Source: Candidatus Staskawiczbacteria bacterium RIFCSPHIGHO2_02_FULL_42_22 (GTDB taxonomy: Bacteria; Patescibacteriota; Minisyncoccia; Minisyncoccales; Staskawiczbacteraceae). From it: 64,000 nt of DNA. Location of the stretch: NCBI GenBank assembly GCA_001820175.1, contig MHOT01000012.1, positions 124 to 64,123 on the forward strand, read 5' to 3'. Below, piece after piece: positions 8,541 through 64,000 of this stretch. A model generated the notes under the pieces. The model was not told the origin of the DNA and ran no database searches. It saw only the letters and a program-made list of their open reading frames with translations. A program made the position numbers and the translations under genes. The number at the start of each line of letters is the position of its first letter. The stretch's first letter is position 1.

Positions 8541-8686
8541 TAGATTGCTTCGTCGTCACGCCTGCGGGCGCAACTCCTCGCAATGACGGGGGACACAGAA
8601 TTCGCGTCATTGCGAGGAGCCCGCAGGCGACGAAGCAATCTAACGGTGAACGGAGATTGCTTCGCTGCGGCTCGCAATGACGGATT
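8541..8686. repeat. GC-rich palindromic element (GTCATTGCGAGG...GAAGCAATCT...AGATTGCTTC...CCTCGCAATGAC family), tandem pair
   Basis: Nested inverted repeats read directly: cgtcattgcgaggagcccgcaggcgacgaagcaatctaacggtgaacggagattgcttcgctgcggctcgcaatgacgg. Confidence 0.7.
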
Positions 8687-8773
8687 GATGACGAGCTTAA
8701 AACATTATTCACAGTTCAAGGAAAATATGATGTGTTATAAAATTTCCGAATATGGTAAAATATTCGAATAGTT

Positions 8774-11700
8774 ATGATTAAAAAACCGAAAAAACTAATT
8801 TATTTCTTTGCCGTTTTTTTGATAGGTTTTTTACTGTTAACGGTAAGCTATAGCGCTTTGGCGCTGGAAGTGCAATATCCTCACATTCCGGGATTTTCGG
8901 ATATTAAAAATGGAAGCACCCTACCCGATTATATTAATTATTTCTTTGGCTTTATTATGGTAACGGCCGGAATCATTGCGGTTATTTCCATTGCCATTGG
9001 TGGCCTGCGCATGTTAATTTCTGCCGGTAACCCGGGGGCCCGCGGCGAGGCGATGGACCGGATTTTTGGAGGAGTGCTAGGTATTATTTTATTGATGTTT
9101 TCCTACGTTATTTTAGAGACCATTAATCCCCAGCTGGTGAATTTGCAAGAAACAAGTGTAGTGTCTCTAAACAAAGGAATGTTTTTAGGAGAGCCGAAGG
9201 AGGGACAGGCCATGAATAATAATTCACACTCCATTACGGCTAATTTCGCCCAAAAATTACTAATAAATAACCCCCTTGCGGTTGCAATCGCGAAAGCCGA
9301 TGGAAGTTTCTATAGCCAATTTAATATTGAAGATTATGATATCACCCCATTGCCCGAATCCATAATTAATAGAACTTTCAAGCCGGGGAGTTTTGTTTGG
9401 AATAATTGTCCGGGGTGTGTTGAAGGAGACGGTCCGGGTAAATTTCTGCGGGTGACATACCGTTCTGAGGGCGAAGAGTTTAACGATGACGATACTGCGG
9501 CAAAGCGTGTTCATTTACCAGACATAGAAACTACTGACGAAAATTTTGACGAGGTTAGCTTCTCTCTTTATGGAGTAAAAGACCTTGATTGGGCCGAAAA
9601 AACGCCGGGGATCTATCTTTTTAAGACCGATGATTGCACGGGCCTGCCCACCCGTGTCATTACTAGCAGCGGGCAAATTCCCCCCGGTTTTCAAAACCAG
9701 GTGCGTTCAGCCCAGATTCTTAATGGGAATGAAGAGGGAGACCCCCGCTACGGATTTATTTTAAACACCAGCCCCGATTTAAAGGGCACCTGCAGCCAGC
9801 CGTTTATGAATTATGAGGCCAGCGACCCTGATTACGAGGACGGAGAAGACCATGATTCCGAAGACGAAGCCCCGTGTTTTCCAATTATTAACGACTCACC
9901 TTCGTGCGATTTTACGGTCCCCCAAACCCATAATGTATGCGTTAACCAAACCTGTACCCAAGTAGACGGAGTGGGGGACAATGCCTGCAACACTAGTTCC
10001 GACTGCCTGCCCCAAACCCACAACGAATGCGTCAACCAGGCCTGTCAAGAGATAAGCGGAGCTGGCGATAATAAATGTACCAGCAACAGCGAATGTCTTC
10101 CTACGTGTAATACCGATACACAAAAGTGCGAGGTGGGGGGCGGAGGAAAGAGTTGTAATTCTGATTCAGAATGTACAACTTCTGTTCATAACGAATGCGT
10201 CAACCAGGCCTGCCAAGAGGTAAGTGGAGCTGGCGATAATAAATGTACCAGCAATAGCGAATGTCTTCCTACGTGTAATACCGATACACAAAAGTGCGAG
10301 GTGGGGGGCGGAGGAAAGAGTTGTAATTCTGATTCCGAGTGCACACCGCAACTGGCAGTATTGACCATAAAAAAAGTGGTTGATAATGCGGGGGTTGGGA
10401 ACTCTAATTGCGAAAGTTTTCAGACCTATCGTCTATTTGATTATAATCACTCTGAATGGCTTGGGCTTAACCTATGTCCATCGGGTACGGTGGATATACC
10501 GCTTGAAGCAGGTTATTATGCATTTATGGAAAATGAGCGCAGGCCCCCCTACAAGGCAACTTATGAAGGCGCATGCCCCAGCACCAATATTATCCAAGTA
10601 ACCGAAGGCCAAAATGCCACCTGTACGGTTACTAATACATATAGTTATGGATGCAATAGCCAAAACCAATGTGTTGAAGGGGGCACGGTTAAAGGTTGTG
10701 ATATTGCCAACGGTGATGCCGACTGCACTGCGCCAACTGGCAAATGTAGCACTAACCCTAGCCAGACCTATACTTGTTCTCCGTCAAATAATGGCGCCCC
10801 TTGCACCTCTGCCAATGTATGTAAACCAAGATGCAATAGCCAAAACAAATGCGTTCAGGGGCTTACTGAAGGGCCAGAATGCAGTAATCTTGGCGGTGAC
10901 TGTACTGCATCCATTCTTGTAACAAAAGAATGTGATCCGGTTGGTGATCAAGGGCGCTTTATTATGAGAAAGGACGGTCAGAATATGAATGGCCCAAACA
11001 CTCCGGATATAGGATGTGGCGAAAGCGCAAGCGCCCAAGTAACACCGGGAAGAGATTATATCATAAGCGAAGCTCCTGGAAACAGTACCACTGATCTCTC
11101 TAAATATGATACAGTTATTGGCGGGGAATGCGACCGAAGCGGCCGATTTACTGCGAAGGTAGGTGTTAATAGGTGTACCATCACCAATAACAAGAAACAT
11201 GCGTATTTGCAAATAAAAAAAGAGTGCAGTCCCACAGATGATACTGGTCACTTTGACTTGCGAATTGATGGCATAACGACTTATAGTCAGAATATGGATT
11301 GTGTAAATAATACCACTACTCCACGTAGAGATGTGGGTACTGGAACCCATACCGTCAGTGAACTTGCGGGAAGTAATACCAATCTTTTCGATTACACCAC
11401 TACTATTGATTGCGGTTCGGGGGCGACCAGCGGAACTAGTAAAACTATCACCCTGCAAAAAGATGATGATAAACTCTGCACTATTACCAACACTAAAAAA
11501 CCACCCGGTTCCGCGTCTATAAAAGTAGTAAAACAGTGTAATCCGAGTAGCGACCCAGGTCGTTTTAAAGCAACTATTAATGGCGAAATTGCCAGCAACC
11601 AAGAATTAACATGTACCGGCCCCACGTCATCGGTAACTATTAATGTATCACCCGGAAATTATCTGGTAGGTGAAGTTGCTGGCAGTGGTACCAACCTCTC

Positions 11701-13414
11701 CCAATACAACCCACCGGTGTTTGGTGGGGACTGCACTCAAAGTGGACAAATTATTGCGGAAGTAGGAAAAACGAATTCATGTATTATTACTAATAGCCCC
11801 AAAACTGCTTCATCAGCAACCCTGCGTTTTCATAAGACCGTATTTAATAGCGACAACAATGGTAGTCCCGATTATTCTCCTAATGATTTCGGACCATTTA
11901 CCCTGCAAAATACATCTCGTTCATATACATTTAATGTAGATGCAAGCGGCGATGCCATAATTACTAATATTGTACCCGATACATATTCTATTATTGAAAA
12001 TTATCAAGATTATTATGAGGCAACTTATACCGGAACCGGTGGAGCATGTAACGGCAATAATATCATACCTTTAGGACCAGGAGAAACAAAGGAGTGCATT
12101 ATTTTTAATAGGTGGGAGGGAGGAATATTAGTGTTACATAAAATTATAAAGGATGGTGATTTAAAAAGCGAAGATTTTCTGCCATTTATTTACGATGCAG
12201 ACTTGGATTATGGTCAATTCTATACTTGGGGAGTACCAATACCAGTTTATGCTGGTCATCAGTTGTACGTCTCTGAAATCATACCTGCTAATTCTAATTA
12301 TACCGGCCAATTTGCTCCCCCAAGCGATTGCGATGCAAATGGAGGCATTATTCTTGACGTAGACCAATGGGCGGATTGCAATATTACTAATACCTATCAA
12401 CCTAGCCCATCAGACACAATGTTAACGGTAATAAAAAAAGTAGTGGGAGGACCACTGGATGGGCAATCAAGCCAGTTCCGGATGACCATCGCTGGTTCTG
12501 CTGGCCCTGCCGTACAGGGAGATAATTCTTTTCCTGGCACAGATGACCCCGGCACCCCAAAGATGTTATCTATAACTGGCCCTACCGACTACCGCGTCGA
12601 AGAATCATCGGTCAGCGGTTACACAATGACATATTATAATAATTGCTCAGGTACCATAAACCCGGGGGATCACATCATCTGCAGTATTACTAATACTTAT
12701 CAATTAGGAGCAGGATTAATAAACCCTCAAAACGCTATTTTGGCTAATGTTTCAACCAGTATTATTAATAAAATAAGGCCAGAAATAATTTCTCTTGCCT
12801 CACCCATGCGCATCCGGCTTGCCGCCACGGTTGATGATAGGGGAGGCGTCGGTAGCGACCCTATCGCATTCCCCGCCAGTTATATTTATGTTATTAAGGG
12901 TTACAACCCTGGCAATCCGGAGTTTGATACCCCGGGAACCGGGGTAAGCTTGTATGCCGGCACGCGCTACAAATACCTTCCACCTTCCACTATTAAACAA
13001 CACTTTATTTTAGATGGGACAACTGATTGCGACGACACCTATCAAACCTGCTGGCCCTACACCAACACCGACGATTTATTAAAAGAAATTGGCGATATCC
13101 AGCCGGGTTTTGGTCAAAACCAGGATATCTGCAAGCGAACCTATATTTACCCCTGCACCCAGTACATCGACCACCAGGGAAGCTACCTTACGGTTTTATA
13201 CACCCAAAACCAGGGAAACCCCTACAACCAAACCTGCAGCACTTTCATTAATTCGGTTGACTTTATCAGGGACACCAATAATATTCCCATAGGTAGCACA
13301 CCTATTAACAATCCCTTGCCCACCAATTCTAATATTGATGTAAATAGCGATATTAGTATTTTTGATAATAATAAATACGTCTGCAGAGTGGATATCTTCC
13401 CAATACTGCCGTAG
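8774..13414 (+). CDS. giant surface protein: VirB2/TrbC-like pilin N-terminal module fused to ~1400-aa cysteine-rich and repeat-rich extracellular region (putative T4SS-anchored adhesin)
   Basis: N-terminus has signal/TM, helix YINYFFGFIMVTAGIIAVISIAIGGLRMLISAG, short charged loop NPGARGEAMDRIF and a second helix GGVLGIILLMFSYVIL (VirB2/TrbC-like). These are followed by an acidic linker and four CxNQxCQxxxGAGDNKCTSNSECLP modules. After that come ten or more ~100-aa beta-rich repeats ending in C.ITNT. Confidence 0.5.
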   Translation: MIKKPKKLIYFFAVFLIGFLLLTVSYSALALEVQYPHIPGFSDIKNGSTLPDYINYFFGFIMVTAGIIAVISIAIGGLRMLISAGNPGARGEAMDRIFGGVLGIILLMFSYVILETINPQLVNLQETSVVSLNKGMFLGEPKEGQAMNNNSHSITANFAQKLLINNPLAVAIAKADGSFYSQFNIEDYDITPLPESIINRTFKPGSFVWNNCPGCVEGDGPGKFLRVTYRSEGEEFNDDDTAAKRVHLPDIETTDENFDEVSFSLYGVKDLDWAEKTPGIYLFKTDDCTGLPTRVITSSGQIPPGFQNQVRSAQILNGNEEGDPRYGFILNTSPDLKGTCSQPFMNYEASDPDYEDGEDHDSEDEAPCFPIINDSPSCDFTVPQTHNVCVNQTCTQVDGVGDNACNTSSDCLPQTHNECVNQACQEISGAGDNKCTSNSECLPTCNTDTQKCEVGGGGKSCNSDSECTTSVHNECVNQACQEVSGAGDNKCTSNSECLPTCNTDTQKCEVGGGGKSCNSDSECTPQLAVLTIKKVVDNAGVGNSNCESFQTYRLFDYNHSEWLGLNLCPSGTVDIPLEAGYYAFMENERRPPYKATYEGACPSTNIIQVTEGQNATCTVTNTYSYGCNSQNQCVEGGTVKGCDIANGDADCTAPTGKCSTNPSQTYTCSPSNNGAPCTSANVCKPRCNSQNKCVQGLTEGPECSNLGGDCTASILVTKECDPVGDQGRFIMRKDGQNMNGPNTPDIGCGESASAQVTPGRDYIISEAPGNSTTDLSKYDTVIGGECDRSGRFTAKVGVNRCTITNNKKHAYLQIKKECSPTDDTGHFDLRIDGITTYSQNMDCVNNTTTPRRDVGTGTHTVSELAGSNTNLFDYTTTIDCGSGATSGTSKTITLQKDDDKLCTITNTKKPPGSASIKVVKQCNPSSDPGRFKATINGEIASNQELTCTGPTSSVTINVSPGNYLVGEVAGSGTNLSQYNPPVFGGDCTQSGQIIAEVGKTNSCIITNSPKTASSATLRFHKTVFNSDNNGSPDYSPNDFGPFTLQNTSRSYTFNVDASGDAIITNIVPDTYSIIENYQDYYEATYTGTGGACNGNNIIPLGPGETKECIIFNRWEGGILVLHKIIKDGDLKSEDFLPFIYDADLDYGQFYTWGVPIPVYAGHQLYVSEIIPANSNYTGQFAPPSDCDANGGIILDVDQWADCNITNTYQPSPSDTMLTVIKKVVGGPLDGQSSQFRMTIAGSAGPAVQGDNSFPGTDDPGTPKMLSITGPTDYRVEESSVSGYTMTYYNNCSGTINPGDHIICSITNTYQLGAGLINPQNAILANVSTSIINKIRPEIISLASPMRIRLAATVDDRGGVGSDPIAFPASYIYVIKGYNPGNPEFDTPGTGVSLYAGTRYKYLPPSTIKQHFILDGTTDCDDTYQTCWPYTNTDDLLKEIGDIQPGFGQNQDICKRTYIYPCTQYIDHQGSYLTVLYTQNQGNPYNQTCSTFINSVDFIRDTNNIPIGSTPINNPLPTNSNIDVNSDISIFDNNKYVCRVDIFPILP
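10008..10340 (+). repeat. near-perfect tandem duplication (~150 bp x2) inside the adhesin CDS
   Basis: cacaacgaatgcgtcaaccaggcctgtcaagag...gattcagaatgtaca is repeated with about 7 substitutions. It encodes a duplicated HNECVNQACQE.SGAGDNKCTSNSECLPTCNTDTQKCEVGGGGKSCNSDSEC module. Confidence 0.8.
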
Positions 13415-13416
13415 TA

Positions 13417-13525
13417 TTACCACTCGTCATTGCGAGGGTTCGAAACCCGAAGCAATCTCCACCTCTCGTCATTGCGAGCCACGGCGAAGTAATCTTATAG
13501 CGATCCCTCACGCCTCGTCATTGCG
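13417..13525. repeat. GC-rich palindromic element, interrupted by IS insertion
   Basis: cgtcattgcgagggttcgaaacccgaagcaatctcc...cgtcattgcgg, then the IS. The remainder of the element (tcattgcgaggagtcctgagc...) resumes at 14597. Confidence 0.6.
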
Positions 13526-14596
13526 GGTATAAAGGTAGGTAACTTGTTGCTAATTTTTGAAGTAGATATACCACTTAAAGAAATCCTTTCGCCTGCCCTT
13601 TAACAATCCGCGATGTTGTCGGTAAATAATTTTTAATCTTGAAAAATATCCCTCGATCTTGTTCGTGGTTGAAGGAATATTTTTATCTTTTAAATAATGG
13701 AACATGCTCGGCAGAGCGTTTATCAATAAATTTCTGGTTGCTTTAAGATCGCTGAAAACTTTATCCTTTGAAGACAGGAGGTTCACCGATTTTCCGTATT
13801 TCCTTTCCCATTTTTGAAAAGTATTTAAGAATATTTTTTTACCTCTTTCATTTTTAATTTTTGTAACAGATAGCAATATATCTCTTAATTTCTTGCTGGC
13901 CTCCAGCTTTGGATTTCTTCTTAACCATGATAACCCCTGCCGTTGAATGTGTGCCAAACATCTTTGTATGATAATATCTGGCCAGACATCTTTAATGGCC
14001 CTCATTACGCTTGTATTGCCATCTACCGTGATAGCCATGGGCATAATGCCGCAGCTCTTTGACTCTTCAAAAATTGATCTTGCATATTCGTAATTTTCTC
14101 TGATACAATATTTATGATTTACGATTTTACCATTCGAATTGTCTATTAGCACCATTAGACAATTTTCATGTTTGAAATATGTCCCATCAAAAAGTAAATA
14201 TTTTATTTGATGGTAATTTAGAGTTTTTTTATCCGGCGCTTTGTTCATCCAAAAAGATAATATTTGTTTTATCTTCCAAATTCCACGACGGCTAATACTG
14301 ACTAATTGCCTTGCCGAATAACCCTCAACAATCCACAGCTCAAACCATTTTCTTTCGTTAAATTCCTTGTTCTTGCGATTATGAAAAGTGTAGGTGTGCT
14401 TACAAATTTTACATCTATACCTCTGGTAACCGCATGAAGTGCGACCAAATAATTTAACATTCAAAGAACCACACTTTAGACAACTTTTTTTTCATAATAT
14501 TGAACTGATTTGATATTATTCCAGATTTTAATTGTAATTTACTCTCAAATTAGCACGAAATCCGCATTTTTAGCAACAAGTTACCTACCTTTATAC
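13526..14596 (-). mobile_element. IS1595-family-like insertion sequence with 27-bp perfect TIRs and 8-bp target duplication
   Basis: TIR gtataaaggtaggtaacttgttgctaa at 13527-13553, with its reverse complement at 14570-14596. The direct repeat tcattgcg occurs at 13518-13525 and 14597-14604. There is a single transposase ORF. Confidence 0.7.
13550..14464 (-). CDS. transposase (N-terminal zinc ribbon plus DDE domain; IS1595-like)
   Basis: C..C...C..C near the N-terminus (CGYQRYRCKICKH). DDE-region motifs LFDGTYF, ITVDGNTSVMRAIKDVWPD and TNKIEGYFSRLK. Length 304 aa. Confidence 0.7.
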   Translation of the reverse strand: MNVKLFGRTSCGYQRYRCKICKHTYTFHNRKNKEFNERKWFELWIVEGYSARQLVSISRRGIWKIKQILSFWMNKAPDKKTLNYHQIKYLLFDGTYFKHENCLMVLIDNSNGKIVNHKYCIRENYEYARSIFEESKSCGIMPMAITVDGNTSVMRAIKDVWPDIIIQRCLAHIQRQGLSWLRRNPKLEASKKLRDILLSVTKIKNERGKKIFLNTFQKWERKYGKSVNLLSSKDKVFSDLKATRNLLINALPSMFHYLKDKNIPSTTNKIEGYFSRLKIIYRQHRGLLKGRRKDFFKWYIYFKN

Positions 14597-14690
14597 TCAT
14601 TGCGAGGAGTCCTGAGCCGCAGCGAAGGACGACGAAGCAATCTAACATTGAACGGAGATTGCTTCACTGCGGCTCGCAATGACGGCGTAA
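14597..14690. repeat. GC-rich palindromic element (right part of IS-disrupted copy plus hairpin)
   Basis: tcattgcgaggagtcctgagccgcagcgaaggacgacgaagcaatctaacattgaacggagattgcttcactgcggctcgcaatgacgg. Confidence 0.65.
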
Positions 14691-14692
14691 CT

Positions 14693-14729
14693 GTAAACAA
14701 AAACGACCCTTGGGATCGTTTTTGTTTAC
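14693..14729. terminator. hairpin downstream of jag
   Basis: gtaaacaaaaacgacccttgggatcgtttttgtttac stem-loop. Confidence 0.4.
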
Positions 14730-14744
14730 AGAATTGTAAAAAAA

Positions 14745-15245: not shown

Positions 15246-15253
15246 AATTAATA

Positions 15254-15410
15254 GACCTGTTGCGTATTAAGGATTTACTGCAAATTGCATATTTCGGCCA
15301 TAAATTTGCTATAATTTTTCGGCGGGCCCTCTAGGCAAGCCGAAAAATTCTATCAAATTTCTGGCTCAAAATCTTCAATTTTCGTAACAATCCTTAATAC
15401 GCAACAGGTC
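15254..15410. repeat. family-C MITE-like element (conserved core ttttcggcgggccctctaggcaagccgaaaaattctatcaaattt, self-complementary termini), copy 1
   Basis: Termini are gacctgttgcgtattaaggatt and aatccttaatacgcaacaggtc. TA on both flanks. Confidence 0.65.
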
Positions 15411-15451
15411 TAATTCTTTAAATGTAACCTCTTGCGCCTCTCCCATATATA

Positions 15452-15550
15452 CTCGTCGTCATTGCGAGCGAGCGGCCGCAGCCGCGAGCGCGGCAATCTC
15501 CTTTTTTTTACGGGGATTGCTTCGGGCCTGCGGGTCCTCGCAATGACGAG
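15452..15550. repeat. GC-rich palindromic element overlapping the 3' end of yidC
   Basis: cgtcgtcattgcgagcgagcggccgcagccgcgagcgcggcaatctcc...ggggattgcttcgggcctgcgggtcctcgcaatgacgag. The yidC stop codon (15508) lies inside the element. Confidence 0.65.
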
Positions 15551-16287
15551 ATAGGGGGAATTACTTTTATATTTTTTGATCTTTTGAGAATAAACCATTG
15601 CTGCGCCATGGAAAATAATCCGCTTACAATCCAATATAGTCCCAGCGCCGATGGTAATTTTATAAGAATAATCACGGTAATAATAGGAAAAAGATATACC
15701 ATTTGTTTTTGCATCATGGATGCAATATCAGGGCCACTTTTTGCCACCCCCTTAATTGTCTTGGGAAGCAGCATTTTTGTTTGAAAAAATTGTACGGCTC
15801 CCGCCAACACTGCAAATATCATATTAGGGTCGCCTAGGTTAATAAGCCCCAGAAACATTGTGTTAATCTGCACGGGGTTTACCACAAATTGATATAAATG
15901 AGAAAGCTCTTCTGGTTTTAATCCATTCCAAAATACCCGATACAGGGCGATAAGAATAGGGAGTTGTATCAAGGCCAAAAAAAGGCCTGAAAACGGGTTT
16001 ATCTTTTCCCTGCGGTATAATTCCAGGGTCTCTTTGGCTTGCTTTTCCTTATCGTCTTTATATTTTTTTTGCAGTTCCCGCAACTGCGGCTGCAATTTTT
16101 GCATAGCCGCCTGAGAGGCAACGGCTTTCACTGAAAGCGGATAGATAATAATCCGAATAATCACTGTAAGAATAATAATAGCGATGCCAAAATCGTGGCC
16201 AGGCACATAATTATAAATAATCACCAGGAAATTAAAGAGGGGAAAGTATAAAAAAAAATCGAAAAAATTTACAATAAATTGGAACAT
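15508..16287 (-). CDS. yidC: membrane protein insertase YidC (short form); last ~18 codons encoded by a GC-rich repeat
   Basis: Multi-TM Oxa1/YidC pattern with conserved loop PQLRELQKKYKDDKEKQAKETLELYRREKINPFSG. The C-terminus ...SLRGPAGPKQSP is read from the repeat. Confidence 0.8.
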   Translation of the reverse strand: MFQFIVNFFDFFLYFPLFNFLVIIYNYVPGHDFGIAIIILTVIIRIIIYPLSVKAVASQAAMQKLQPQLRELQKKYKDDKEKQAKETLELYRREKINPFSGLFLALIQLPILIALYRVFWNGLKPEELSHLYQFVVNPVQINTMFLGLINLGDPNMIFAVLAGAVQFFQTKMLLPKTIKGVAKSGPDIASMMQKQMVYLFPIITVIILIKLPSALGLYWIVSGLFSMAQQWFILKRSKNIKVIPPISSLRGPAGPKQSP

Positions 16288-17296: not shown

Positions 17297-18655
17297 ATGG
17301 ACCACAACGAACTCTGGCAACAAGTGCTGGCACAAATGCAATTTCATATTTCCAAGGCAAATTTTGCCACGTGGTTTCAAAATACCGAAATTATTTTAAG
17401 AGAAGATGAAAAGATGGTCATTTCCGTACCCAATGCTTTTTCTAAAGAATGGCTGAAGAACAAATATTATAAACTTATTCTCAAAACTATCCATACTACA
17501 GATAATTCTATAAAAGAATTGGAGTTTGTTATTAAACCTCAGTTATTAAAAAAAATTGACCAGAAAGAGGATACTAAAAAACCAGAAATAGAAACCGGGC
17601 AATTAAAATTTGAAGAGTTTAAGGTAAACAAAGAAACTAATTTAAATCCGCGCTACACCTTTGAAAATTTTGTCGTCGGATCATTTAATGAGCTGGCGTA
17701 TTCGGCCAGCTTGGCGATTTCAGAAAATGTCGGGACTGTGTACAACCCCTTATTTATTTATGGCGGCGTCGGTTTGGGAAAAACCCATTTAATACAGGCC
17801 ATTGGAAATAAAATACATGACAGCCCCAAAAAAAAGAAGGTAAAGTATATTTCCTGTGAAAAATTTGTTTCGAGCATTGTGTCGGGAATACGAAACCATA
17901 ATATTGATATTTTTAAAGCAAGTTTGTCTTTAATTGACGTATTAATTATTGACGACATCCAGTTTTTGGCAGGAAAAGATAAAACCCAGGAAGAATTCTT
18001 CCACACTTTTAATTCTCTATACGAAAAAAATAAACAAATCATTCTTTCTTCTGATCGGCCGCCCAACGCCATTCCTGAACTAGAAGAACGCCTGCGATCG
18101 CGTTTTGAAGGCGGAATGATCACCGACATTAGTCTACCGGATTATGAAACACGGCTTGCTATTTTAAAAACAAAGCTTCAAGAAAAAAATCTAAAACTAC
18201 CCGAAGATGTATTAGAATACGTCGCTTCTAACGTAAAAAAGAATATCAGGGAATTAGAAGGGGCCCTTAATAGTTTATTAATATATTATAAAACCAACAC
18301 CTCAATTCCTAACCTTGAAACAACTAAAAGATTATTGAAAAATTTTGTATTTTCTCCCTTTAATGTGGCAAATTACAAAAAAATCATTGAAATTGTTTCT
18401 AAATTTTATAATTTAGATGAAAAAACGATTTTTAACCCGACCCGCCGCAAAGAAATTGTTAGGCCCCGGCAAATTGCCATGTTTTTATTAAGAGAAGAAT
18501 TAAAATACTCCTTCCCGGCCATTGCCCGTAAATTTGGCGGAAAAGACCACACCACCGTGATTTACGCCCATAAAAAAATACTCCAAGAATGCCAACAAAA
18601 TAATAAACTCACTGAAGAATTAAATATGATAAAACAAAAAGTATATAGTGGTTAA
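17297..18655 (+). CDS. dnaA: chromosomal replication initiator DnaA
   Basis: AAA+ Walker A GGVGLGKTHLIQAIGN, Walker B LIIDDIQFL, sensor motifs, C-terminal DNA-binding domain. Confidence 0.9.
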   Translation: MDHNELWQQVLAQMQFHISKANFATWFQNTEIILREDEKMVISVPNAFSKEWLKNKYYKLILKTIHTTDNSIKELEFVIKPQLLKKIDQKEDTKKPEIETGQLKFEEFKVNKETNLNPRYTFENFVVGSFNELAYSASLAISENVGTVYNPLFIYGGVGLGKTHLIQAIGNKIHDSPKKKKVKYISCEKFVSSIVSGIRNHNIDIFKASLSLIDVLIIDDIQFLAGKDKTQEEFFHTFNSLYEKNKQIILSSDRPPNAIPELEERLRSRFEGGMITDISLPDYETRLAILKTKLQEKNLKLPEDVLEYVASNVKKNIRELEGALNSLLIYYKTNTSIPNLETTKRLLKNFVFSPFNVANYKKIIEIVSKFYNLDEKTIFNPTRRKEIVRPRQIAMFLLREELKYSFPAIARKFGGKDHTTVIYAHKKILQECQQNNKLTEELNMIKQKVYSG

Positions 18656-18689
18656 GCAACCCCTCACGCCCCACATAACCCCTCACGCC

Positions 18690-18975
18690 CCCACCGTCAT
18701 TGCGAGGCACACTGAAGCAATCCCCGTACAAAACGACGAGATTGCCACGTCGCTTGCGAGCTCCTTGCAATGAAGACACTGGGTCACTGATCCTATTTTA
18801 CACTTTTTGATTAGGGGGTGTGAGGGGTTACCGCCTCACCACCATCACTACCGTCATTGCGAGGAATCCGCAGATTCCGTGGCAATCCCTCAATAATACG
18901 ACTAGATTGTCCCGATGGTGGAGCCATCGAGGATCCTCGATAGAATCGGGACTGCGGGCCCTCGTAATAACAGTA
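18690..18975. repeat. cluster of GC-rich palindromic elements (3 units)
   Basis: ccgtcattgcgaggcacactgaagcaatcc..., cgtcattgcgaggaatccgcagattccgtggcaatcc... and attgtcccgatggtggagccatcgaggatcctcgat...atcgggact. Confidence 0.65.
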
Positions 18976-19235: not shown

Positions 19236-20363
19236 ATGAAAATAGAAGTGTTGAAAGAAAATTTAAAATCAGGCCTTATTATTAGTGAAAGAATTGTGGG
19301 TAAAAACATATCCCTCCCTATTTTACATAATGTGTTAATAACCACAGAGAATAATTTTTTAAGTTTAATTTCTACTGATTTAGAAGTAACTATTAAATTA
19401 TGGATGCTGGTGAAAATTATTAACAAAGGAAGTGTGGTGGTGCCGGCAAAATTCCTTTCTAGTTTTATTACCTCTTTACCTAATGAGAAAATAACTATGG
19501 AGCAAAGGGATCAGTCCTTGTATATTGAGTGTGGAAATGTGAAGACAAAAATCCAAGGACATAACTTAGAGGATTTTCCTATTATCCCTGAGTTTAAAAA
19601 TACTGAAACACTGGAGGTTGATAGCCAGGCATTATATGGGGCAATTTCACAGGTGGTTGATATTGCTTCCCAGAACCAAGGCCGACCGGAAATTTCTGGT
19701 GTCTATTTTTCTTTTCTGAAAAATTCCATTAAAGTAGTGGCCACTGATAGTTTTCGTTTAGCAGAAAAAAATATTCACCTATCAGAGCCCATTAAAAAAG
19801 AGCATAGTTTTATTTTGCCCCAAAAGTCGGCCCGAGAAATTATGAATATTTTAGAGGGAAGGGGAGGGGCGGTGATCATATATTTTTCACCAAATCAAGT
19901 ACTTTTTGAAGTATTAATGAAAGAGGTTGGGCATCCGGAAGTCCAAGTTACTTCCCGTCTTATTGATGGGGAGTACCCTAATTACCAAGATATCATACCC
20001 AGTAAATTTAAGACCCATATTACGGTATCAAAAGACCAATTTTTAAACCAAATAAAAACCGCGTCATTATTTTCAGGTAAGGTTAATGAAGTGAGAATTT
20101 CCCTTAGTACCGAAAAACAAGACCTTGAAATATCTTCAAAGAGCCAAGATGTTGGCGAACACACCTCATTATTAAAAGCAAAAATAGAAGGGGAGGCGAT
20201 ACAGATATCTTTTAATTATAAATTTTTAATGGATGCTCTTTTGCACATGAAAAGTTCAGAGGTAATTTTAGAAATAAGCAAAGAAGATGGACCCTGTCTT
20301 CTGCGACCCCTGGGAGACGATAGTTATATTTGTGTAGTGATGCCGATTAAATCGCTTCAATAG
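19236..20363 (+). CDS. dnaN: DNA polymerase III beta sliding clamp
   Basis: 375 aa. Three-domain clamp pattern with the dnaA-dnaN gene order. Confidence 0.85.
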   Translation: MKIEVLKENLKSGLIISERIVGKNISLPILHNVLITTENNFLSLISTDLEVTIKLWMLVKIINKGSVVVPAKFLSSFITSLPNEKITMEQRDQSLYIECGNVKTKIQGHNLEDFPIIPEFKNTETLEVDSQALYGAISQVVDIASQNQGRPEISGVYFSFLKNSIKVVATDSFRLAEKNIHLSEPIKKEHSFILPQKSAREIMNILEGRGGAVIIYFSPNQVLFEVLMKEVGHPEVQVTSRLIDGEYPNYQDIIPSKFKTHITVSKDQFLNQIKTASLFSGKVNEVRISLSTEKQDLEISSKSQDVGEHTSLLKAKIEGEAIQISFNYKFLMDALLHMKSSEVILEISKEDGPCLLRPLGDDSYICVVMPIKSLQ

Positions 20364-20469: not shown

Positions 20470-20617
20470 ACATACACCCACCGTCATTGCGAGGAGCGCG
20501 CACGCGACGCGGCAATCTCCACCACCAAACGACGACGGAGATTGCCATGGCTGGCCAGACGCGAGGCGTAATTTGTCGCAACAAATTCGCCCCGTCTCCG
20601 GCCTCGCAATGACGGGA
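20470..20617. repeat. GC-rich palindromic elements (2 units)
   Basis: ccaccgtcattgcgaggagcgcgcacgcgacgcggcaatctcc...ggagattgcc...gcctcgcaatgacggg. Confidence 0.65.
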
Positions 20618-22924: not shown

Positions 22925-23215
22925 CAAGCAATCTGTGGGTAACCTCTCACACCCCCAATGTCATTCCCGACGCGCACGATCGGGAATCCAGGGTATCTTG
23001 TTTAGACCTCTTGCAAAATAAGGATTAGCTGAAAATTCCATATTTTGGCTGAAAATTTGCAATAATTTTTCGGCGGGCCTATGGGCAAGCCGAAAAATTC
23101 TATCAAATTTTCATCTAAAAATCTGTAATTTTCGCTCTAATCCTTATTTTACAAGAGGTCTTTTGAAAATCTTCTGGATCTCGCTTCAAAAGCCCGGGAT
23201 GACAACGAGAGGCGT
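22925..23215. repeat. GC-rich element split by a nested family-C element
   Basis: gtcattcccgacgcgcacgatcgggaatccaggg | family-C copy (gacctcttgcaaaataaggatt...aatccttattttacaagaggtc) | aaaatcttctggatctcgcttcaaaagcccgggatgacaacgagaggcg. An uninterrupted version is at 38574..38665. Confidence 0.7.
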
Positions 23216-27994: not shown

Positions 27995-28306
27995 ACTACC
28001 GTCATTGCGAGGAGTCCCGATCGCAATCGTGGACGACGAAGCAATCTCGTCATTTTGTATGGAGATTAGACCTGTCCCTAAATAAGGTTTCGTACGAAAA
28101 TAACAGATTTTGAGCTAGAAATTTGATAGAATTTTTCGGCTTGCCCTCTGGGCCCGCCGAAAAATTATAGCAAATTTGTGGCCAAAAGGTGTTATTTGCA
28201 GTAAAACCTTATTTAGGGACAGGTCTATTACTTCGTCGTTGTGACTCCTCGCAATGACGGGGTGGCCAGATTGCTTCGGGCCTGCTGGCCCTTGCAATGA
28301 CAAAGT
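27995..28306. repeat. GC-rich element with a nested family-C element (copy 3, TA-flanked)
   Basis: ccgtcattgcgaggagtcccgatcgcaatcgtggacgacgaagcaatctcgtcattttgtatggagat-TA-[gacctgtccctaaataaggttt...aaaccttatttagggacaggtc]-TA-ttacttcgtcgttgtgactcctcgcaatgacgg. Confidence 0.65.
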
Positions 28307-31609: not shown

Positions 31610-32254
31610 GTGGAAAAAATAATTACTAAAACCTTTCGTCAAACCCAGGAAGTCGGCCAAAATTTCGCGGATGAAATTCTATCTTCTGATTCTCAAAAAA
31701 CGGCGGTGATTTTGGCGTTGAGGGGTGATTTGGGTGCCGGAAAAACCACGTTTTTGCAGGGCTTTGCAAAAGGCCTGGGAATTATTGAAGTGGTGAATAG
31801 TCCGACGTTTGTTATTATGAAGAAATTCAAAATCGCTGAATTGCGCGGAAATTTACCCTTCGGCCTCGCTCAGGGCGGGCGCGGAAGGGACGCGGAAACG
31901 AAACCGCGCGGCGGCCCCGCGGGGCCGCCCGCCCGCCCGTCATTGCGAGCCGTGCCCAGTGGGGCGCGGCGTGGTCCCGATGAATTTATCAAGATAAATT
32001 CATACGAGGATCCTCGATGGCAAAGCCATCGGGACAATCCAGCGTTTAAATTTTTCTACCACTTCGATTTATATCGCCTCGAAAGCGAAAAGGACTTGGA
32101 GTTTTTGAATTTCCAAGAAATAATTTCAAACCCAAAAAACATCATTGCCATCGAATGGCCGGAAAAAATCGGCAAATTATTGCCTAAAAATAGCATTTCA
32201 ATAATATTCAAACATTTAGAAGAAAATAAAAGAGAGTTGATAATTCATAGATAA
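31610..32254 (+). CDS. tsaE: tRNA threonylcarbamoyladenosine biosynthesis protein TsaE, carrying an in-frame repeat-element insertion
   Basis: Walker A ILALRGDLGAGKTTF; SPTFVIMKKF ... HFDLYRL motifs. About 55 extra codons lie between them (GLAQGGRGRDAETKPRGGPAGPPARPS...). Confidence 0.75.
   Translation: MEKIITKTFRQTQEVGQNFADEILSSDSQKTAVILALRGDLGAGKTTFLQGFAKGLGIIEVVNSPTFVIMKKFKIAELRGNLPFGLAQGGRGRDAETKPRGGPAGPPARPSLRAVPSGARRGPDEFIKINSYEDPRWQSHRDNPAFKFFYHFDLYRLESEKDLEFLNFQEIISNPKNIIAIEWPEKIGKLLPKNSISIIFKHLEENKRELIIHR
31855..32042. repeat. GC-rich palindromic element inserted in frame within tsaE
   Basis: gcccgcccgtcattgcgagccgtgcccagtggggcgcgg ... ggtcccgatg...gaggatcctcgatggcaaagccatcgggacaatcc. 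Same sub-motifs as copies at 18895 and 38755. Confidence 0.65.
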
Positions 32255-38424: not shown

Positions 38425-38860
38425 ACCCACTACCGTCATTGCGAGGAGCCCCGAACCACAGTGAGGGGCGACGAAGCAATCTAATAACGAATGGAGATTG
38501 CTTCGCTGTGGCTCGCAATGACGAGAGAAAAACCATTATTCGCCAAGCTCTAATTAAAACCCCTCACACCCCCGATGTCATTTACGACGCGCACGATCGG
38601 GAATCCAGGGGAAAATCTTCTGGATCCCGGGTCAAAAGTCCGGGATGACAACGAGAGGCGTGAGGGGCTATTTTTGGTAATTTTGAGTATGGCAAATAAT
38701 CCCCTCAATCAGTCATTGCGAGCCCACAGGCGTGGCAATCTCGCTTCATTGAATCTAACTGGATTGTCCCGATGGTGGAACCATCGAGGATCCTCGATCA
38801 CATCGGGACTTCGGGTTTGCGAACCCTCGCAATGACGATGCGCGTGGGGGATGCCTCGGT
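38425..38860. repeat. cluster of GC-rich palindromic elements (4 units, including an intact copy of the unit split at 22925)
   Basis: ccgtcattgcgaggagccccgaaccacagtgaggggcgacgaagcaatct...; gatgtcatttacgacgcgcacgatcgggaatccagggg...cccgggatgacaacgagaggcg; cagtcattgcgagcccacaggcgtggcaatctc...attgtcccgatggtggaaccatcgaggatcctcgat. Confidence 0.7.
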
Positions 38861-48068: not shown

Positions 48069-48284
48069 ATGGATGATAAAAATGGTTTTCATGCACAACT
48101 TTACGCTTTGATGGATGATTTTGTGCTTGATGTTTATTCTGTGAGTAAAAATTTTCCAAAAGACGAATTATACGGTGTTACCTCGCAATTAAGGAGAGCC
48201 ACATTATCTGTAATTTTAAACTATATAGAAGGTTATGCAAGGAGAAGAGACAAAGTTTACAAGAATTGTTTAGAAATTTCATAA
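48069..48284 (+). pseudogene. truncated four-helix-bundle (PF05635) gene fragment
   Basis: 71-aa ORF with LSVILNYIEGYARR motif; the rest of the family fold is missing. Confidence 0.35.
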
Positions 48285-48475
48285 GGTTCCTTAAAAGAGG
48301 CAAAGTATCTGATATATTTTAGTTGTCGCCAAGGATATATAACCAAAGAAGATGAAAAAAAGTTATTAGTTTTATCCGAAAGAATTGGAAAAATGTTATG
48401 GGGAATTATTGTAAAAATATAAAATTAGTGCGTTAAGTTTAAGCGTTCTGCGCTACGCGCTCCACGTTCTGCAAA

Positions 48476-49042: not shown

Positions 49043-49046
49043 GAGT

Positions 49047-49105
49047 ATGGACATCACATCCAGAAACCGCACTAAGTTGCCGACGGTTTGGAAACTTTAG
49101 TGCAA
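49047..49105. repeat. family-B element remnant (left TIR plus ~30 nt)
   Basis: atggacatcacatccagaaaccgcactaagttgccgacggtttgg, then diverges. Confidence 0.5.
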
Positions 49106-54786: not shown

Positions 54787-54818
54787 AAAAGCCGCCGCGC
54801 TAAAGCGCGGCGGCTTTT
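54787..54818 (+). terminator. rho-independent terminator
   Basis: aaaagccgccgcgctaaagcgcggcggctttt. Confidence 0.6.
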
Positions 54819-55077: not shown

Positions 55078-55158
55078 CTCGTCATTGCGAGCCGCAGCGA
55101 AGCAATCTCCGTTCATCGCTAGATTGCTTCGTCGCCTGCGGGCTCCTCGCAATGACGG
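55078..55158. repeat. GC-rich palindromic element
   Basis: cctcgtcattgcgagccgcagcgaagcaatctccgttcatcgctagattgcttcgtcgcctgcgggctcctcgcaatgacgg. Confidence 0.7.
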
Positions 55159-56284: not shown

Positions 56285-56465
56285 GGGTATGCAGCGTAAT
56301 CCTAATCTCCGTTCGTCATTGCGAGGCCGGAGACGGGGCGAATTTGTTGCGACAAATTACGCCTCGCGTCTGGCCAGCCGTGGCAATCCCCGTCGTCGTT
56401 TGGTGGTGGAGATTGCCGCGTCGTCCTTCGCCCTGGCTCAGGACTCCTCGCAATGACGGGAGGTG
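56285..56465. repeat. GC-rich palindromic elements (2 units)
   Basis: ccgttcgtcattgcgaggccggagacggggcgaatttgttgcgacaaattacgcctcgcgtctggcc...gtggcaatcc...ggagattgccgcgtcgtcc...cctcgcaatgacggg. Confidence 0.65.
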
Positions 56466-56497
56466 TAACATGTCCAGTGAGCAGTTACAGAGGCCTT

Positions 56498-56677
56498 ATG
56501 GACATCACATCCAGAAACCGCACTAAAGTCGCCGGCGGTTTGGCAATCTTGGGCGGCTTGGAACAAAAAATATGCGAGGCGTAGCCGAAGCTACGGCGAA
56601 CATATTTTTTGTGAAAACTGCCCAAGATTGCCAAATCCGGCAAGACTTGGAGTGCGGTTTCTGGATGTGATGTCCAT
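56498..56677. repeat. family-B MITE-like element, copy 4
   Basis: Perfect 27-bp TIRs, TA flanks; the flanking host sequence aggcctt/aagggcct is itself palindromic. Confidence 0.7.
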
Positions 56678-56730
56678 AAGGGCCTTTTTTGTTATTTTGT
56701 AGTATAATGAAGCATTAATTATTTTATCTT

Positions 56731-57394: not shown

Positions 57395-57480
57395 TACCTC
57401 CTCCGTGTCATTCCCGCGAAAGCGGGAATCCAGATTCTCAAACAAAAACGCTAGATTCCCGCTTTCGCAGGAATGACAAT
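57395..57480. repeat. GC-rich palindromic element, variant subfamily (second copy)
   Basis: ccgtgtcattcccgcgaaagcgggaatccagattctcaaacaaaaacgctagattcccgctttcgcaggaatgacaat. Confidence 0.65.
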
Positions 57481-61275: not shown

Positions 61276-61783
61276 ACTCTTTCGATACAATCATCGTAAA
61301 CCCTTTTATTTCTCGTTTTAATTCCCGTTCTACTTTTAGTGGTATTAATTTATCAGTAGTTTCAAGAAAGAAAATCATTTTTTGTTTTGCCAGCTCGCCC
61401 ATGGCTTTCTCTCTGCCTTTCAGCACCATACTTACCTTTACTTTATCGCCCTCTTTGATAAATTTCTCTGCTTGCTTGGCTTTTGTTTCAATGTCGCCGG
61501 CGGCTATATTAAACCCAATCTGGATTTCTTTTAACTTAGTAATTTTGGTATTTACCTTTATTTTCTTTTCTTTTTTTTGCAGTGAATAGAGATATTTTCC
61601 GTAGTTGGCAATGCGACATACCGGCGGCTGGACTTTTTCGGTTACCTGAATTAAATCCAGTCCTTTGCTTTTTGCCAATTCAATGGCCGCAAAAATATTC
61701 ATCACTCCCAGTTGTTCGCCGGTCTCACTGATGACCCGCACTTCTTTTGCCCGTATGAAATTGTTGATTAATACTTTTTCCAA
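61274..61783 (-). CDS. infC: translation initiation factor IF-3, probable non-ATG start
   Basis: IRAKEVRVISETGEQLGVM...PPVCRIANYGKYLY. The listed ATG start at 61912 would run through a GC-rich repeat. A TTG at 61781-61783 preceded by aaggaaaa fits the usual IF-3 atypical start. The 5' boundary is uncertain. Confidence 0.7.
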   Translation of the reverse strand: MEKVLINNFIRAKEVRVISETGEQLGVMNIFAAIELAKSKGLDLIQVTEKVQPPVCRIANYGKYLYSLQKKEKKIKVNTKITKLKEIQIGFNIAAGDIETKAKQAEKFIKEGDKVKVSMVLKGREKAMGELAKQKMIFFLETTDKLIPLKVERELKREIKGFTMIVSKE

Positions 61784-61790
61784 ATGATTT

Positions 61791-61866
61791 TCCTTGTCAT
61801 TCTCGGGCTTGACCCGAGAATCCAGAGTTATTCTTGCTGGATTCCGGGCTTTGGCGGGAATGACAT
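61791..61866. repeat. GC-rich palindromic element between infC and ssrA
   Basis: ccttgtcattctcgggcttgacccgagaatccagagttattcttgctggattccgggctttggcgggaatgacatgtgg. Confidence 0.6.
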
Positions 61867-61867
61867 G

Positions 61868-62217
61868 TGGTGGAGATGCCGAGATTGAACTCGGGTCCAA
61901 TAATTTTTTCAAAATAATTCTACAAATGTATTCTGTTTTGTTGTTTGGATATCAAATAAGAAACAGACAAAATTTTTAATATCCTAATCCTCTTAATTTC
62001 AATAATTTTCCGAGGAGAAAAATTATCTATCCTAATAATATAACACCCTTGGTCCGCCTATTAGGAGTCGACGGCAAGGATGCAGCACTAAGCGTATGCT
62101 AATGCTGGTTGCTTATTAAATAAATTAGCAATTATGTTTTTTCTGAAAGTTTAGCCAGATTTCAGAATACTGGATTTGCTTATTTTGAAAGGAACTATTG
62201 TCGAAGCTCACATCCCC
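61868..62217 (-). ncRNA. ssrA: tmRNA (SsrA), one-piece, CCA encoded
   Basis: Minus strand reads 5'-GGGGAUGUGAGCUUCGACAAUAG...GGACCCGAGUUCAAUCUCGGCAUCUCCACCA-3'. The 7-bp acceptor stem GGGGAUG/CAUCUCC has a G3-U pair, and there is a T-arm CCGAG-UUCAAUC-CUCGG. Candidate tag frame GCU AAU UUA UUU AAU AAG CAA CCA GCA UUA GCA UAC GCU UAG (ANLFNKQPALAYA). Immediately downstream of smpB. Confidence 0.75.
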
Positions 62218-63241: not shown

Positions 63242-63919
63242 ATGAATAAAGAAAATATCATCATTTCACTGGGCGGATCGCTGGTTGCGCCACAGGAAAT
63301 TGACACCGCTTTTTTGAAAACATTCAAAAAAGCGGTAATAAAATTTTTAGAATCCAAGCGTTTTTTTATATTCGTCGGCGGCGGGAAAGTATGCCGTGAT
63401 TACCAAAAATCATTGCTGGAATTCGGTGCCGACAATAAAGACCGTGATTTAATTGGCATTGATATTTCGCGATTAAATGCGCGGGTTGTGAAGCAATCTT
63501 TCGATAAGTTGGCGTTTGATAACGTAATCACTGATCCCACCAAAAAAGTGAATTCCCGGCGTGATGTGGCGGTATTTGGCGGCTGGAAGCCGGGGTGGTC
63601 AACGGATTACTGCAGTGTGATATTGGCCAAAAATATGGGCATTAAAACCATTGTTAATCTTACCAATATTGATTATGTATACGAAAAAGATCCGAAGAAA
63701 TTTCCGAACGCCAAACCCCTTGAGGAAATCACCTGGAAGGATTTCAGGAAAATAGTGCCGGAAAAATGGAGTCCTGGTTTGTCGGCGCCCTTTGATCCGC
63801 GCGCCAGCAAAATGGCGGAAATTTTAAAGATAAAAGTAATTATGATTAATGGTAAATACTTGGAGCGTTTTGAGAATTTTTTACACAGTAAACCGTTTAT
63901 AGGAACTATCATAAGTTAG
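63242..63919 (+). CDS. pyrH: amino-acid-kinase-fold protein, probable UMP kinase
   Basis: IISLGGSLVAPQE N-terminal motif and FVGGG; length ~225 aa. Start set at MNKENII. Confidence 0.5.
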   Translation: MNKENIIISLGGSLVAPQEIDTAFLKTFKKAVIKFLESKRFFIFVGGGKVCRDYQKSLLEFGADNKDRDLIGIDISRLNARVVKQSFDKLAFDNVITDPTKKVNSRRDVAVFGGWKPGWSTDYCSVILAKNMGIKTIVNLTNIDYVYEKDPKKFPNAKPLEEITWKDFRKIVPEKWSPGLSAPFDPRASKMAEILKIKVIMINGKYLERFENFLHSKPFIGTIIS

Positions 63920-63921
63920 TT

Positions 63922-64000
63922 TGTCATTGCGAGCGGCGGCCAGTGGGCCGCCGCGTGGCAATCTCGTCCAATAACAGACCTGTCCCTAAATAAGATTTTA
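63922..64000. repeat. GC-rich element followed by start of another family-C element
   Basis: gtcattgcgagcggcggccagtgggccgccgcgtggcaatctcg, then gacctgtccctaaataag (same terminus as the copy at 28062). Confidence 0.5.

Follow-up and report, generated by a model that had tools for sequence, protein, structure and literature searches.

We analysed a 64,000-nucleotide stretch (hereafter, the window) of contig MHOT01000012.1 from Candidatus Staskawiczbacteria bacterium RIFCSPHIGHO2_02_FULL_42_22, in which a family of hairpin repeats recurs between the genes of a chromosomal origin region. The overall GC content is 39.3%, that of a small, low-GC bacterium, and the genes include rnpA, rpmH, dnaA (17297-18655), dnaN (19236-20363), a PBP1 gene, tmRNA/smpB and many repair genes. 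Proteins 100% identical to those of the window also occur on Rifle-aquifer 'ANAN16-1' scaffolds and on Joint Genome Institute (JGI) groundwater contigs, and the contigs carrying window proteins (L001-L004, L125-L130) are ~100% identical to the window; in the relative Parcubacteria group bacterium GW2011_GWA2_37_10 the identity of DnaN is 64%. The host of the repeats is thus an organism of the Candidate Phyla Radiation (CPR)/Patescibacteria, of the Parcubacteria type. We find that the repeats belong to a known kind of element, whose sequence variant and host group here are new.

The sequence-only reading of this DNA had described an abundant nested-hairpin repeat with more than 25 units in 64 kb, and this abundance was confirmed. 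The outer arm GTCATTGCGAGG, with at most one mismatch, has 30 matches in the window against 0.25 expected, a number reached in 0 of 100 shuffles, and the inner arm GAAGCAATCT has 15 exact matches against 0.13 expected. Upon reading every (N)NTCAT(T/A) site in the window, we obtained 33 ATTGCGAG-type arms, which form ~15 inverted dimers of 76-145 nt in addition to solitary and tandem arms, together with ~10 arms of a second type, ATTCCCGC/ATCCCGG. The repeat units make up 3.1% of the window, and their mean GC content is 56.6% (range 47-65%), lower than the 65-70% first proposed for units set among genes of 35% GC. All four of the clusters that had been pointed out (18690-18975, 38425-38860, 39947-40226 and 56285-56465) are real. 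The copies lie between genes, as had been claimed, with two exceptions only: tsaE contains an in-frame insert of 66 codons, and one unit overlaps the final ~13 codons of yidC. The units are given below along the window, with covariance-model scores where available. SRM stands for 'Ssn-related motif', the name given to the repeats of Ssn, a GIY-YIG family named in 2025 by Chenal et al. (Nat Commun; PMC11893778); MITE1 and MITE2 resemble miniature transposable elements with inverted repeats (MITEs), IS denotes an insertion sequence and ORF an open reading frame.

8541..8588, minus strand: solitary ATTGCGAG-type arm (CGTCATTGCGAGGAGTTGCGCCCGCAGGCGTGACGACGAAGCAATCT on the minus strand), adjoining the MITE1 copy at 8352-8533
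8605..8682, plus strand: complete inverted dimer, 70.9 bits, E 3.6e-15
13425..13495, plus strand: two tandem arms in direct orientation (13425-13460 and 13467-13495)
13516..13525, plus strand: left stub CGTCATTGCG of the outer arm of dimer 14595-14684, split off by the IS256-like insertion
14595..14684, plus strand: inverted dimer, left outer arm struck by the IS256-like element, 42 bits
15457..15548, minus strand: inverted dimer over the last ~13 codons of the yidC ORF (15508-16287, minus strand), 53.8 bits
18695..18775, minus strand: inverted dimer in the dnaA-dnaN spacer, 42.2 bits
18852..18972, plus strand: inverted dimer with a nested TCCCGATGG..CCATCGAGGATCCTCGAT..ATCGGGA module, right outer arm degenerate, 18.1 bits, E 0.03
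20482..20614, plus strand: inverted dimer with an extra hairpin module, between convergent dnaN and PBP1, 42 bits
22958..23204, unstranded: SRM-type dimer (TGTCATTCCCGACGCGCACGATCGGGAATCCAGG ... CTGGATCTCGCTTCAAAAGCCCGGGATGACA), loop broken by the MITE2 copy 23003-23161
28000..28259, plus strand: inverted dimer, central stem broken by MITE2 28067-28226 (GGAGATT / AGACC..GGTCT / ATTACTTCG, slashes at the breaks)
28268..28302, minus strand: solitary arm TGTCATTGCAAGGGCCAGCAGGCCCGAAGCAATCT
31847..32044, plus strand: 66-codon in-frame tsaE insert made of repeat modules, an arm at 31938 and a nested TCCCGATG module
38434..38523, plus strand: complete inverted dimer, 61.9 bits
38576..38652, unstranded: SRM-type dimer, whose right arm TGTCATCCCGGACTTTTGACCCGGGATCCAG matches the published SRM motif
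38711..38837, minus strand: inverted dimer with a nested TCCCGATG..CATCGGGA module, 26.5 bits
39947..40044, minus strand: inverted dimer in a divergent intergenic region, 44.9 bits
40121..40219, plus strand: inverted dimer, 45.7 bits
49158..49230, unstranded: canonical SRM/NTS-like dimer (TGTCATACCCGCGAAAGCGGGGATCCAG .. CTAGATTCCCGCTTTCGCGGGAATGACA)
55080..55157, minus strand: complete inverted dimer, twin of 8605-8682, 70.6 bits
56314..56458, minus strand: inverted dimer with an extra hairpin module; MITE1 follows at 56497-56678
57406..57478, unstranded: canonical SRM/NTS-like dimer
61795..61865, unstranded: SRM-type dimer directly 3' of the tmRNA gene (61868-62217, minus strand)
63922..64000, plus strand: left part of a dimer reaching window-equivalent 64218, with MITE2 in its loop (63977-64138)
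18660-18689, 18817-18827, 38560-38570, 38657-38667, 39935-39945, 40223-40233 and others: sites of the motif CCCCTCACRCC

Several copies are nearly identical. The dimers 8605-8682 and 55080-55157 share 76 of 78 nt, and 110 nt of dimer 20482-20614 are 98% identical to 56314-56423, in both cases in opposite orientations and at unlinked loci. The dimers 39947-40044 and 40121-40219 are jointly bracketed by CCCCTCGCGCC / GGCGCGAGGGG. As annotated, the infC ORF (61281-61907, minus strand) includes the dimer at 61795-61865 in its 5' part, and its start is probably mis-called.

Next, we investigated the anatomy of the repeats. As folded DNA, an arm consists of (Y)CGTC, ATTGC, GA, a variable hairpin enclosed as [G-A]-hairpin-[GA-C], GAA, GCAAT and C(C/T), and two such arms in inverted orientation form the unit of the window, ~80-145 nt long. 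The core is a 5-bp ATTGC/GCAAT stem, followed by purine-rich internal loops (GA against GAA) and a variable GC-rich hairpin. A 'long' arm, with the extra G-A..GA-C layer, usually faces a 'short' arm that lacks it. The variable hairpins stay paired even though they differ from copy to copy (GCGAAGC, ACAAAGT, AAAAATT, GACCGAAGGTC, GTCCCGGAGGGAC), with Watson-Crick pairing at the first inner pair in 58 of 65 sequences and at the second in 54 of 61; 3-4 types of pair occur at each. These stems were read by architecture-aware parsing, since counting pairs by their depth from the arm ends had to be dropped because the internal loops are asymmetric. The proposed self-complementarity of the spacers holds across 129 unique spacers (mean z-score -1.23 vs shuffles). 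In longer variants the motif of stem, GA/GAA loop and stem is repeated recursively, and other long variants carry a palindromic module (TCCCGATGG..GGATCCTCGAT..CATCGGGA) between CGAAG and CAATC; what had been taken for a sub-variant unit, 'attgtcccgatggtgga..', is such a module nested inside an arm. The other suggested sub-variant, 'gtcattcccgcgaaagcgggaatc', is present and corresponds to the ATTCCCGC/ATCCCGG arms, with an 8-bp stem and a GAAA loop.

Every arm in the window starts with (C/T)GTCAT, and the tail is TCT, TCC or CCC, compared with CCAG in most other phyla. The ends of the element are sharp. In a set of 101 dimers taken from other genomes, 67% have C and 25% have T at position -1, 75% have a pyrimidine at position -2, and their flanks showed neither conservation beyond these two positions nor a target duplication.

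To compare the copies with those of other organisms, we trained a covariance model on 61 dimers (alignment A2) that came from other phyla and not from the window, and searched with filters off. Its structure, an outer 12-bp and an inner 13-bp stem, was entered by hand, because RNAalifold on a MAFFT alignment recovered the outer stem only. With it, 14 loci of the window scored below E 1e-3, reaching up to 70.9 bits, and three more scored weakly. The sequence-only reading had made its claim of one nested-hairpin family depend on the copies fitting a common model, and on this evidence the repeats of the window form one family.

We then examined the distribution of the family, using the exact 21-base pattern GTCATTGCGAGG-N4-34-GAAGCAATC to scan a species-representative genome collection. 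The arm pattern was found in at least 120 loci from at least 15 phyla; the matches listed include Alpha- and Gammaproteobacteria, Bacteroidota, Chloroflexota, Planctomycetota, Verrucomicrobiota, Desulfobacterota, Myxococcota and Campylobacterota, as well as Bacillota, Zixibacteria, Omnitrophota, Ignavibacteriota, Armatimonadota, Gemmatimonadota, Latescibacterota and several Patescibacteria. A full dimer is present in 94 of the 133 matches among those listed. Among close relatives the distribution is patchy, with 0-3 arms per ~20 kb compared with ~10 here. The dnaA-dnaN spacer measures 580 bp in the window, where it holds two dimers, and 162-314 bp in 30 relatives with the dnaA-dnaN-PBP gene order, and the tsaE insert (31847-32044) is missing from four orthologues. 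The repeat copies are lineage-specific insertions.

All-against-all clustering of the ORFs in the 120 loci listed gave generic families only and no recurrent neighbouring protein family. Upon inspection of the stretches between distant inverted arms in the fetched loci, we found a gene for a ~95-aa GIY-YIG nuclease exactly in the dimer loop in a Bacillota metagenome-assembled genome (MAG; L097), a Planctomycetota MAG (L037) and the Parcubacteria relative (L144), with GIY-YIG domain scores of 57-65 bits. In Parcubacteria GW2011_GWA2_37_10 (LBSQ01000032.1) the ssn gene is flanked by ATTGCGAG arms, and in L144 an SRM-ssn-SRM unit lies between yebC and ruvC, where the orthologous spacer of the window (24272-24395) is empty. 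When loci were collected by protein first, CGTC-type hairpins stood beside the gene in 23 of 25 (6/6 from the viral collection, 12/14 from plasmids or chromids and 5/5 from assemblies). The ten loci of the clade nearest to L144 all have ATTGCGAG arms around or beside the gene; seven of them (L183, L201, L202, L227, L228, L231 and L232) were found via the protein only, and L228 carries a nested module also present in the window. The type of arm tracks the nuclease clade, not the host phylum, and the ATTGCGAG arm type is physically linked to one Ssn clade. A fixed order of long and short arms relative to the nuclease gene was considered and dropped, as L227 has the opposite order.

Within 40-kb neighbourhoods the arms cluster at the gene, with 4 of 4 arms in S. 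meliloti, 8 of 11 in Rhizobium and 14 of 15 in N. gonorrhoeae. We also observe ssn homologues in the centre of dense arrays of their own repeats in N. gonorrhoeae (L215/L223), Azospirillum (L213) and Rhizobium CIAT894 (L222), an arrangement that resembles a nursery or hotspot more than a gene simply flanked by repeats. The nuclease family comprises 10,666 cluster representatives at 50% identity. Protein identity across phyla is 52-70%, and the nucleases beside ATTGCGAG arms are 43-48% identical to the N. gonorrhoeae homologue, with the catalytic Tyr, Tyr and Glu kept; catalytic residues are invariant across the Ssn homologues compared, and the identity matrix left out rows L202 and L208, whose ORFs were mis-aligned. 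The sole solved relative detectable by sequence is the UPF0213 protein BH0048 (PDB 1ZG2). Over-long ORF calls of the family start with repeat-derived peptides.

These findings connect the repeats to two published systems. In a 2013 survey by Di Nocera, De Gregorio and Rocco (BMC Genomics; PMC3733652), CGTC-tagged repetitive extragenic palindromes (REPs) were defined as four families (CGTC-1 to -4), mostly inverted dimers, in five phyla, and they include Neisseria dRS3 and the Rickettsia palindromic elements (RPEs) RPE-4 and RPE-6; the survey found neither a transposase gene flanked by CGTC repeats nor a dedicated enzyme, for which the 2025 Ssn work and the present loci now provide a candidate. 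As described there, their stems are continuous, 8-9 bp long and start with AT, the loops are 4-5 nt and the tail consensus is CCA. The window repeats share with them the CGTC/TGTC tag, a stem starting with AT, a short tail, the prevalence of inverted dimers, the presence in many phyla and an extragenic location with occasional intragenic copies. In particular, the window arms carry the unpaired terminal CGTC/TGTC-type tag and have the tail, and the ~15 inverted dimers of the window, like the full dimers elsewhere among the matches listed, agree with the dimeric arrangement. Regarding stem and loop, for which the published consensus is known from text only, the ATTCCCGC sub-variant fits, while the main type also starts its stem with AT, with 5 bp followed by the GA/GAA internal loop and the variable hairpin.

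The second system is that of Chenal et al. (PMC11893778), in which the SsnA protein of N. meningitidis binds the oriented dRS3 repeat ('NTS', CGTCATTCCCGCGMAVGCGGGAATCYRG) as single-stranded DNA only, while duplex, RNA and the reverse strand are not bound; cleavage, again of single-stranded DNA only, falls a few nucleotides upstream of the tag. Binding, cleavage and strand specificity are experimentally limited to Neisseria SsnA and three homologues (Neisseria/Wolbachia enzymes), 71% of ssn homologues have an SRM nearby, an Ssn is encoded in 81% of the genomes that have over 200 SRMs, and the NTS-ssnA-NTS layout, likened to an insertion sequence, belongs to a system that modulates natural transformation (PMC11893778). 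The published search motif, HGTCWYN(0-2)YYVSBRHN(0-5)WNVSBRGN(0-2)RNCYNB, has 7 sites in the window vs 0.24 in shuffles, and all of them belong to the 'gtcattcccgcgaaagcgggaatc' sub-variant. Both the window repeats and the SRMs are oriented hairpins with an HGTCAT head and an AATCC-like tail, occur in hundreds of mostly intergenic copies, and flank as pairs a single-domain GIY-YIG gene of ~95 aa; for the window repeat type, this ssn gene (cd10448-type) is found in other genomes, not in the window. They differ in that the main stem of the window is 5 bp long and continues into purine internal loops and a variable, sometimes nested, hairpin, that the units of the window are gene-less inverted dimers, that in the ATTGCGAG-cognate clade the gene is often within a single dimer, and that the host here is of the CPR/Parcubacteria type. 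Judged by sequence, the main ATTGCGAG family is a divergent SRM-like class with an interrupted and modular stem.

The CGTC REPs of 2013 and the Ssn/SRM system of 2025 are the same elements, as both equate theirs with dRS3, and two literatures that do not cite each other are now joined. The wordings 'CGTC-tagged', 'CGTC repeats', 'CGTC REPs' and 'CGTC elements' are all absent from PMC11893778, the text of which also contains no mention of CPR bacteria or of an ATTGCG motif, and a literal search of papers for the sequence GTCATTGCGAG returned primer coincidences only. The association of repeat and nuclease is already published, and our result reproduces that of Chenal et al. independently. A further likeness, by description and not by sequence, is to the RPEs, palindromic repeats that lie in frame within protein genes as does the tsaE insert, although this window offers one intragenic case.

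Taken together, we consider it likely that the repeats are oriented single-strand-DNA hairpin elements of the CGTC REP/SRM superfamily, gene-less counterparts of SRM-ssn-SRM units that are probably bound and cut by a cognate Ssn. The units of the window are placed as gene-less counterparts because the same two arms enclose or flank ssn elsewhere. In the mechanism that we propose, each arm would fold when its DNA becomes single-stranded during replication, transformation or conjugation, and the cognate Ssn would bind the folded arm via hairpin, tag and tail and would make its cut 5' of the tag, at a distance of a few nucleotides. The ATTGCGAG arms may be acted on by an Ssn that the genome encodes at another place or once had, and its nuclease activity may have spread them via a copy mechanism.

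Several observations weigh against this reading. The CGTC REPs, as described, have continuous stems of 8-9 bp, whereas the main type of the window is interrupted and modular, and the main ATTGCGAG arms of the window, both A- and B-type, have no match to the published SRM motif. Neither an ssn gene nor a remnant is present in ~73 kb (the window and 8 kb beyond), the best six-frame hidden Markov model (HMM) E-value being 0.8. The Ssn cleavage data cover Neisseria/Wolbachia homologues, not the ATTGCGAG clade, and Chenal et al. note only a resemblance to insertion sequences and favour a domesticated role in transformation (PMC11893778). Additionally, an inverted dimer offers one arm in the cleavable orientation per strand, so that simple excision of both ends from a single strand is not obvious, and G.T vs A.C pairs in the variable stems number 7 vs 4, with no clear strand asymmetry.

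Among the alternatives, the one that survives best holds that the units are host-domesticated marks, with Ssn cutting incoming single-stranded DNA that carries them and thereby modulating transformation or conjugative uptake. We regard it as rather unlikely for this window, yet as a live alternative, which differs in purpose and so does not conflict with the recognition chemistry. CPR bacteria depend in general on DNA uptake, and the window holds a VirB4/PrgI/TraC-like transfer cluster and a T2SSE-type ATPase, both of which would suit such a role. A role in transformation has been shown by experiment in N. meningitidis (PMC11893778). On the other hand, the low and uneven number of arms in close relatives, the copy within the coding sequence of tsaE, the nesting of units in other elements and their interruption by them, and the presence of recent near-identical copies look like proliferation rather than placement, and no ssn gene was seen in the ~73 kb searched.

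It is improbable that the units act mainly as RNA, as stabilisers of 3' untranslated regions, terminators or small RNAs whose hairpins are kept for RNA folding. Most units do lie downstream of genes in co-directional or convergent spacers, the RNA folds are very stable (e.g. -48.9 kcal/mol for 86 nt), and REPs of other families are known to stabilise mRNA (PMC3733652). Changes in the stems are compensatory, and such variation, the test that had been suggested for distinguishing RNA structure from DNA palindromy, is indeed abundant, yet it cannot separate RNA from single-stranded DNA. However, orientation relative to flanking co-directional genes is unbiased (2 same, 5 opposite), and both strands carry copies, some of which lie in a divergent promoter region (39947-40219) and one within tsaE. 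The units are not followed by a T-run, and the genes have separate terminator hairpins of their own, e.g. at 14691-14731 and ~54790-54815. Furthermore, the Neisseria SsnA does not bind the RNA form (PMC11893778), and in Rfam 15 the tmRNA gene was the only match in the window, with none for the units even at relaxed thresholds and none for the loci from other phyla.

Far less probable still is that the units are REPINs, paired REPs mobilised by a REP-associated tyrosine transposase (RAYT) or an IS200-like HUH tyrosine transposase. The layout is the same, in that a conserved tetranucleotide stands 5' of a hairpin, the hairpins form pairs in inverted orientation and the target is not duplicated (PMC3733652), and the REP/REPIN-RAYT system likewise combines tagged hairpins and inverted doublets with a lone small enzyme gene flanked by its own repeats (REPtron-like), its repeats also acting as insertion targets for other insertion sequences. 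The two differ in that one has a GTAG tag and an HUH Y1 transposase and the other a CGTC tag and a GIY-YIG enzyme, with no sequence relation. The 2013 survey found no CGTC-flanked transposase gene (PMC3733652), no neighbouring protein family recurs across the 120 loci listed, no Y1 (HUH) transposase is encoded in the window, and the gene between the arms is a GIY-YIG nuclease in all ten loci of its clade.

A classical MITE origin of the units, from a DDE insertion sequence bearing terminal inverted repeats, can be all but set aside: their outer arms are inverted repeats and an IS256-like transposase gene (13550-14464) does lie between arms, but that element has its own 27-bp terminal repeats and sits in a repeat arm with an 8-bp duplication, which makes it a guest and not the parent, and the repeat units themselves lack a target duplication. 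The guest is a complete IS256/Mutator-family insertion sequence of ~1.07 kb (13526-14596) with the terminal repeats GTATAAAGGTAGGTAACTTGTTGCTAA, a transposase ORF on the minus strand (Pfam Transposase_mut, 26 bits) and the target duplication TCATTGCG. The repeats thus serve as insertion targets, for this element in an outer arm and for MITE2 in dimer loops and stems.

MITE2 is ~160 nt long, MITE-like, with the ends TAGACCTGT.../...ACAGGTCT(A), and is present at 15252-15411, 23003-23161, 28067-28226 and 63977-(64138). Of its four copies, three interrupt a repeat dimer at its central loop or stem and one lies 46 nt from a dimer, and its position in the dimers is that of the ssn gene in gene-bearing units elsewhere. 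MITE1, also MITE-like, is 182 nt long with terminal inverted repeats TATGGACATCACATCCAGAAACCGCACT; its copies (8352-8533, 32317-32498, 56497-56678 and a fragment at 49046-49075) are 70-97% identical and usually adjoin repeat units. The motif CCCCTCACRCC, with 11 matches in the window vs 0.89 expected, brackets together with its complement single dimers or groups of dimers, giving mosaics that resemble bacterial interspersed mosaic elements (BIMEs).

Elsewhere in the window, 35-13414 is a type-IV-secretion/conjugation-like cluster with a VirB4-like ATPase (CD1110 family) and PrgI-like and TraC-like proteins. It also encodes a 1546-aa protein with a pilin-like N-terminus, the gene of which holds a tandem 159-nt repeat (10019-10177 and 10187-10345, 95% identical). 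Four small '23S rRNA intervening-sequence protein' genes (PF05635) are found at 3293-3655, 4207-4593, 5392-5757 and 48070-48285, three of them interleaved with the genes of the VirB4/PrgI/TraC-like cluster. Regarding variation in the population, L004 (European Nucleotide Archive scaffold_12861) is missing 40-50 bp inside the PBP1 gene relative to window 22001-22050, which splits the gene into ORFs of 439 and 288 aa, and an apparent 7-bp indel among the near-identical contigs was rejected as a polymorphism, being a run of N in a scaffold.

Returning to the identification of the repeats as Ssn-type single-strand-DNA hairpin elements, our results support their mobility, the mechanism of which we infer. 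It is quite possible, although we hold it only tentatively and at somewhat less than even chances, that SRM-ssn-SRM units move actively and form a new enzymatic class of mobile element (GIY-YIG, single-stranded DNA), that the ATTGCGAG dimers are their non-autonomous, MITE-like derivatives, spread horizontally across at least 15 phyla, and that the window represents a recent burst in a reduced CPR genome. This is partly favoured by the sharp ends without target duplication, the lineage-specific insertions and the in-frame gene insertion, by the near-identical unlinked copies in both orientations and the existence of gene-bearing and empty versions of the dimer, as well as by the SRM-ssn-SRM unit between yebC and ruvC in a relative vs the empty spacer here and the protein identity of 52-70% across phyla.

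For annotation, these repeats yield dozens of spurious small ORFs in CPR genomes and inflate real ones, e.g. tsaE and yidC. Recurring peptides had been predicted for such ORFs and do exist, with SLRG falling in units in 20 of 22 occurrences, HCEE in 12 of 12 and VIAR in 19 of 21, but the peptides originally named fared less well, as PAGP lies in units in 6 of 13 occurrences, RGAPSR is present a single time and SSLRGAR is absent. For the family, the published SRM motif is too narrow, as it misses a large cross-phyla hairpin class, ATTGCGAG, with its own Ssn clade. Ssn enzymes are under development as site-specific tools for single-stranded DNA, and each new pair of enzyme and hairpin is a candidate specificity. 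Finally, the comparative evidence for insertion and multiplication bears on how Ssn-associated repeats spread.

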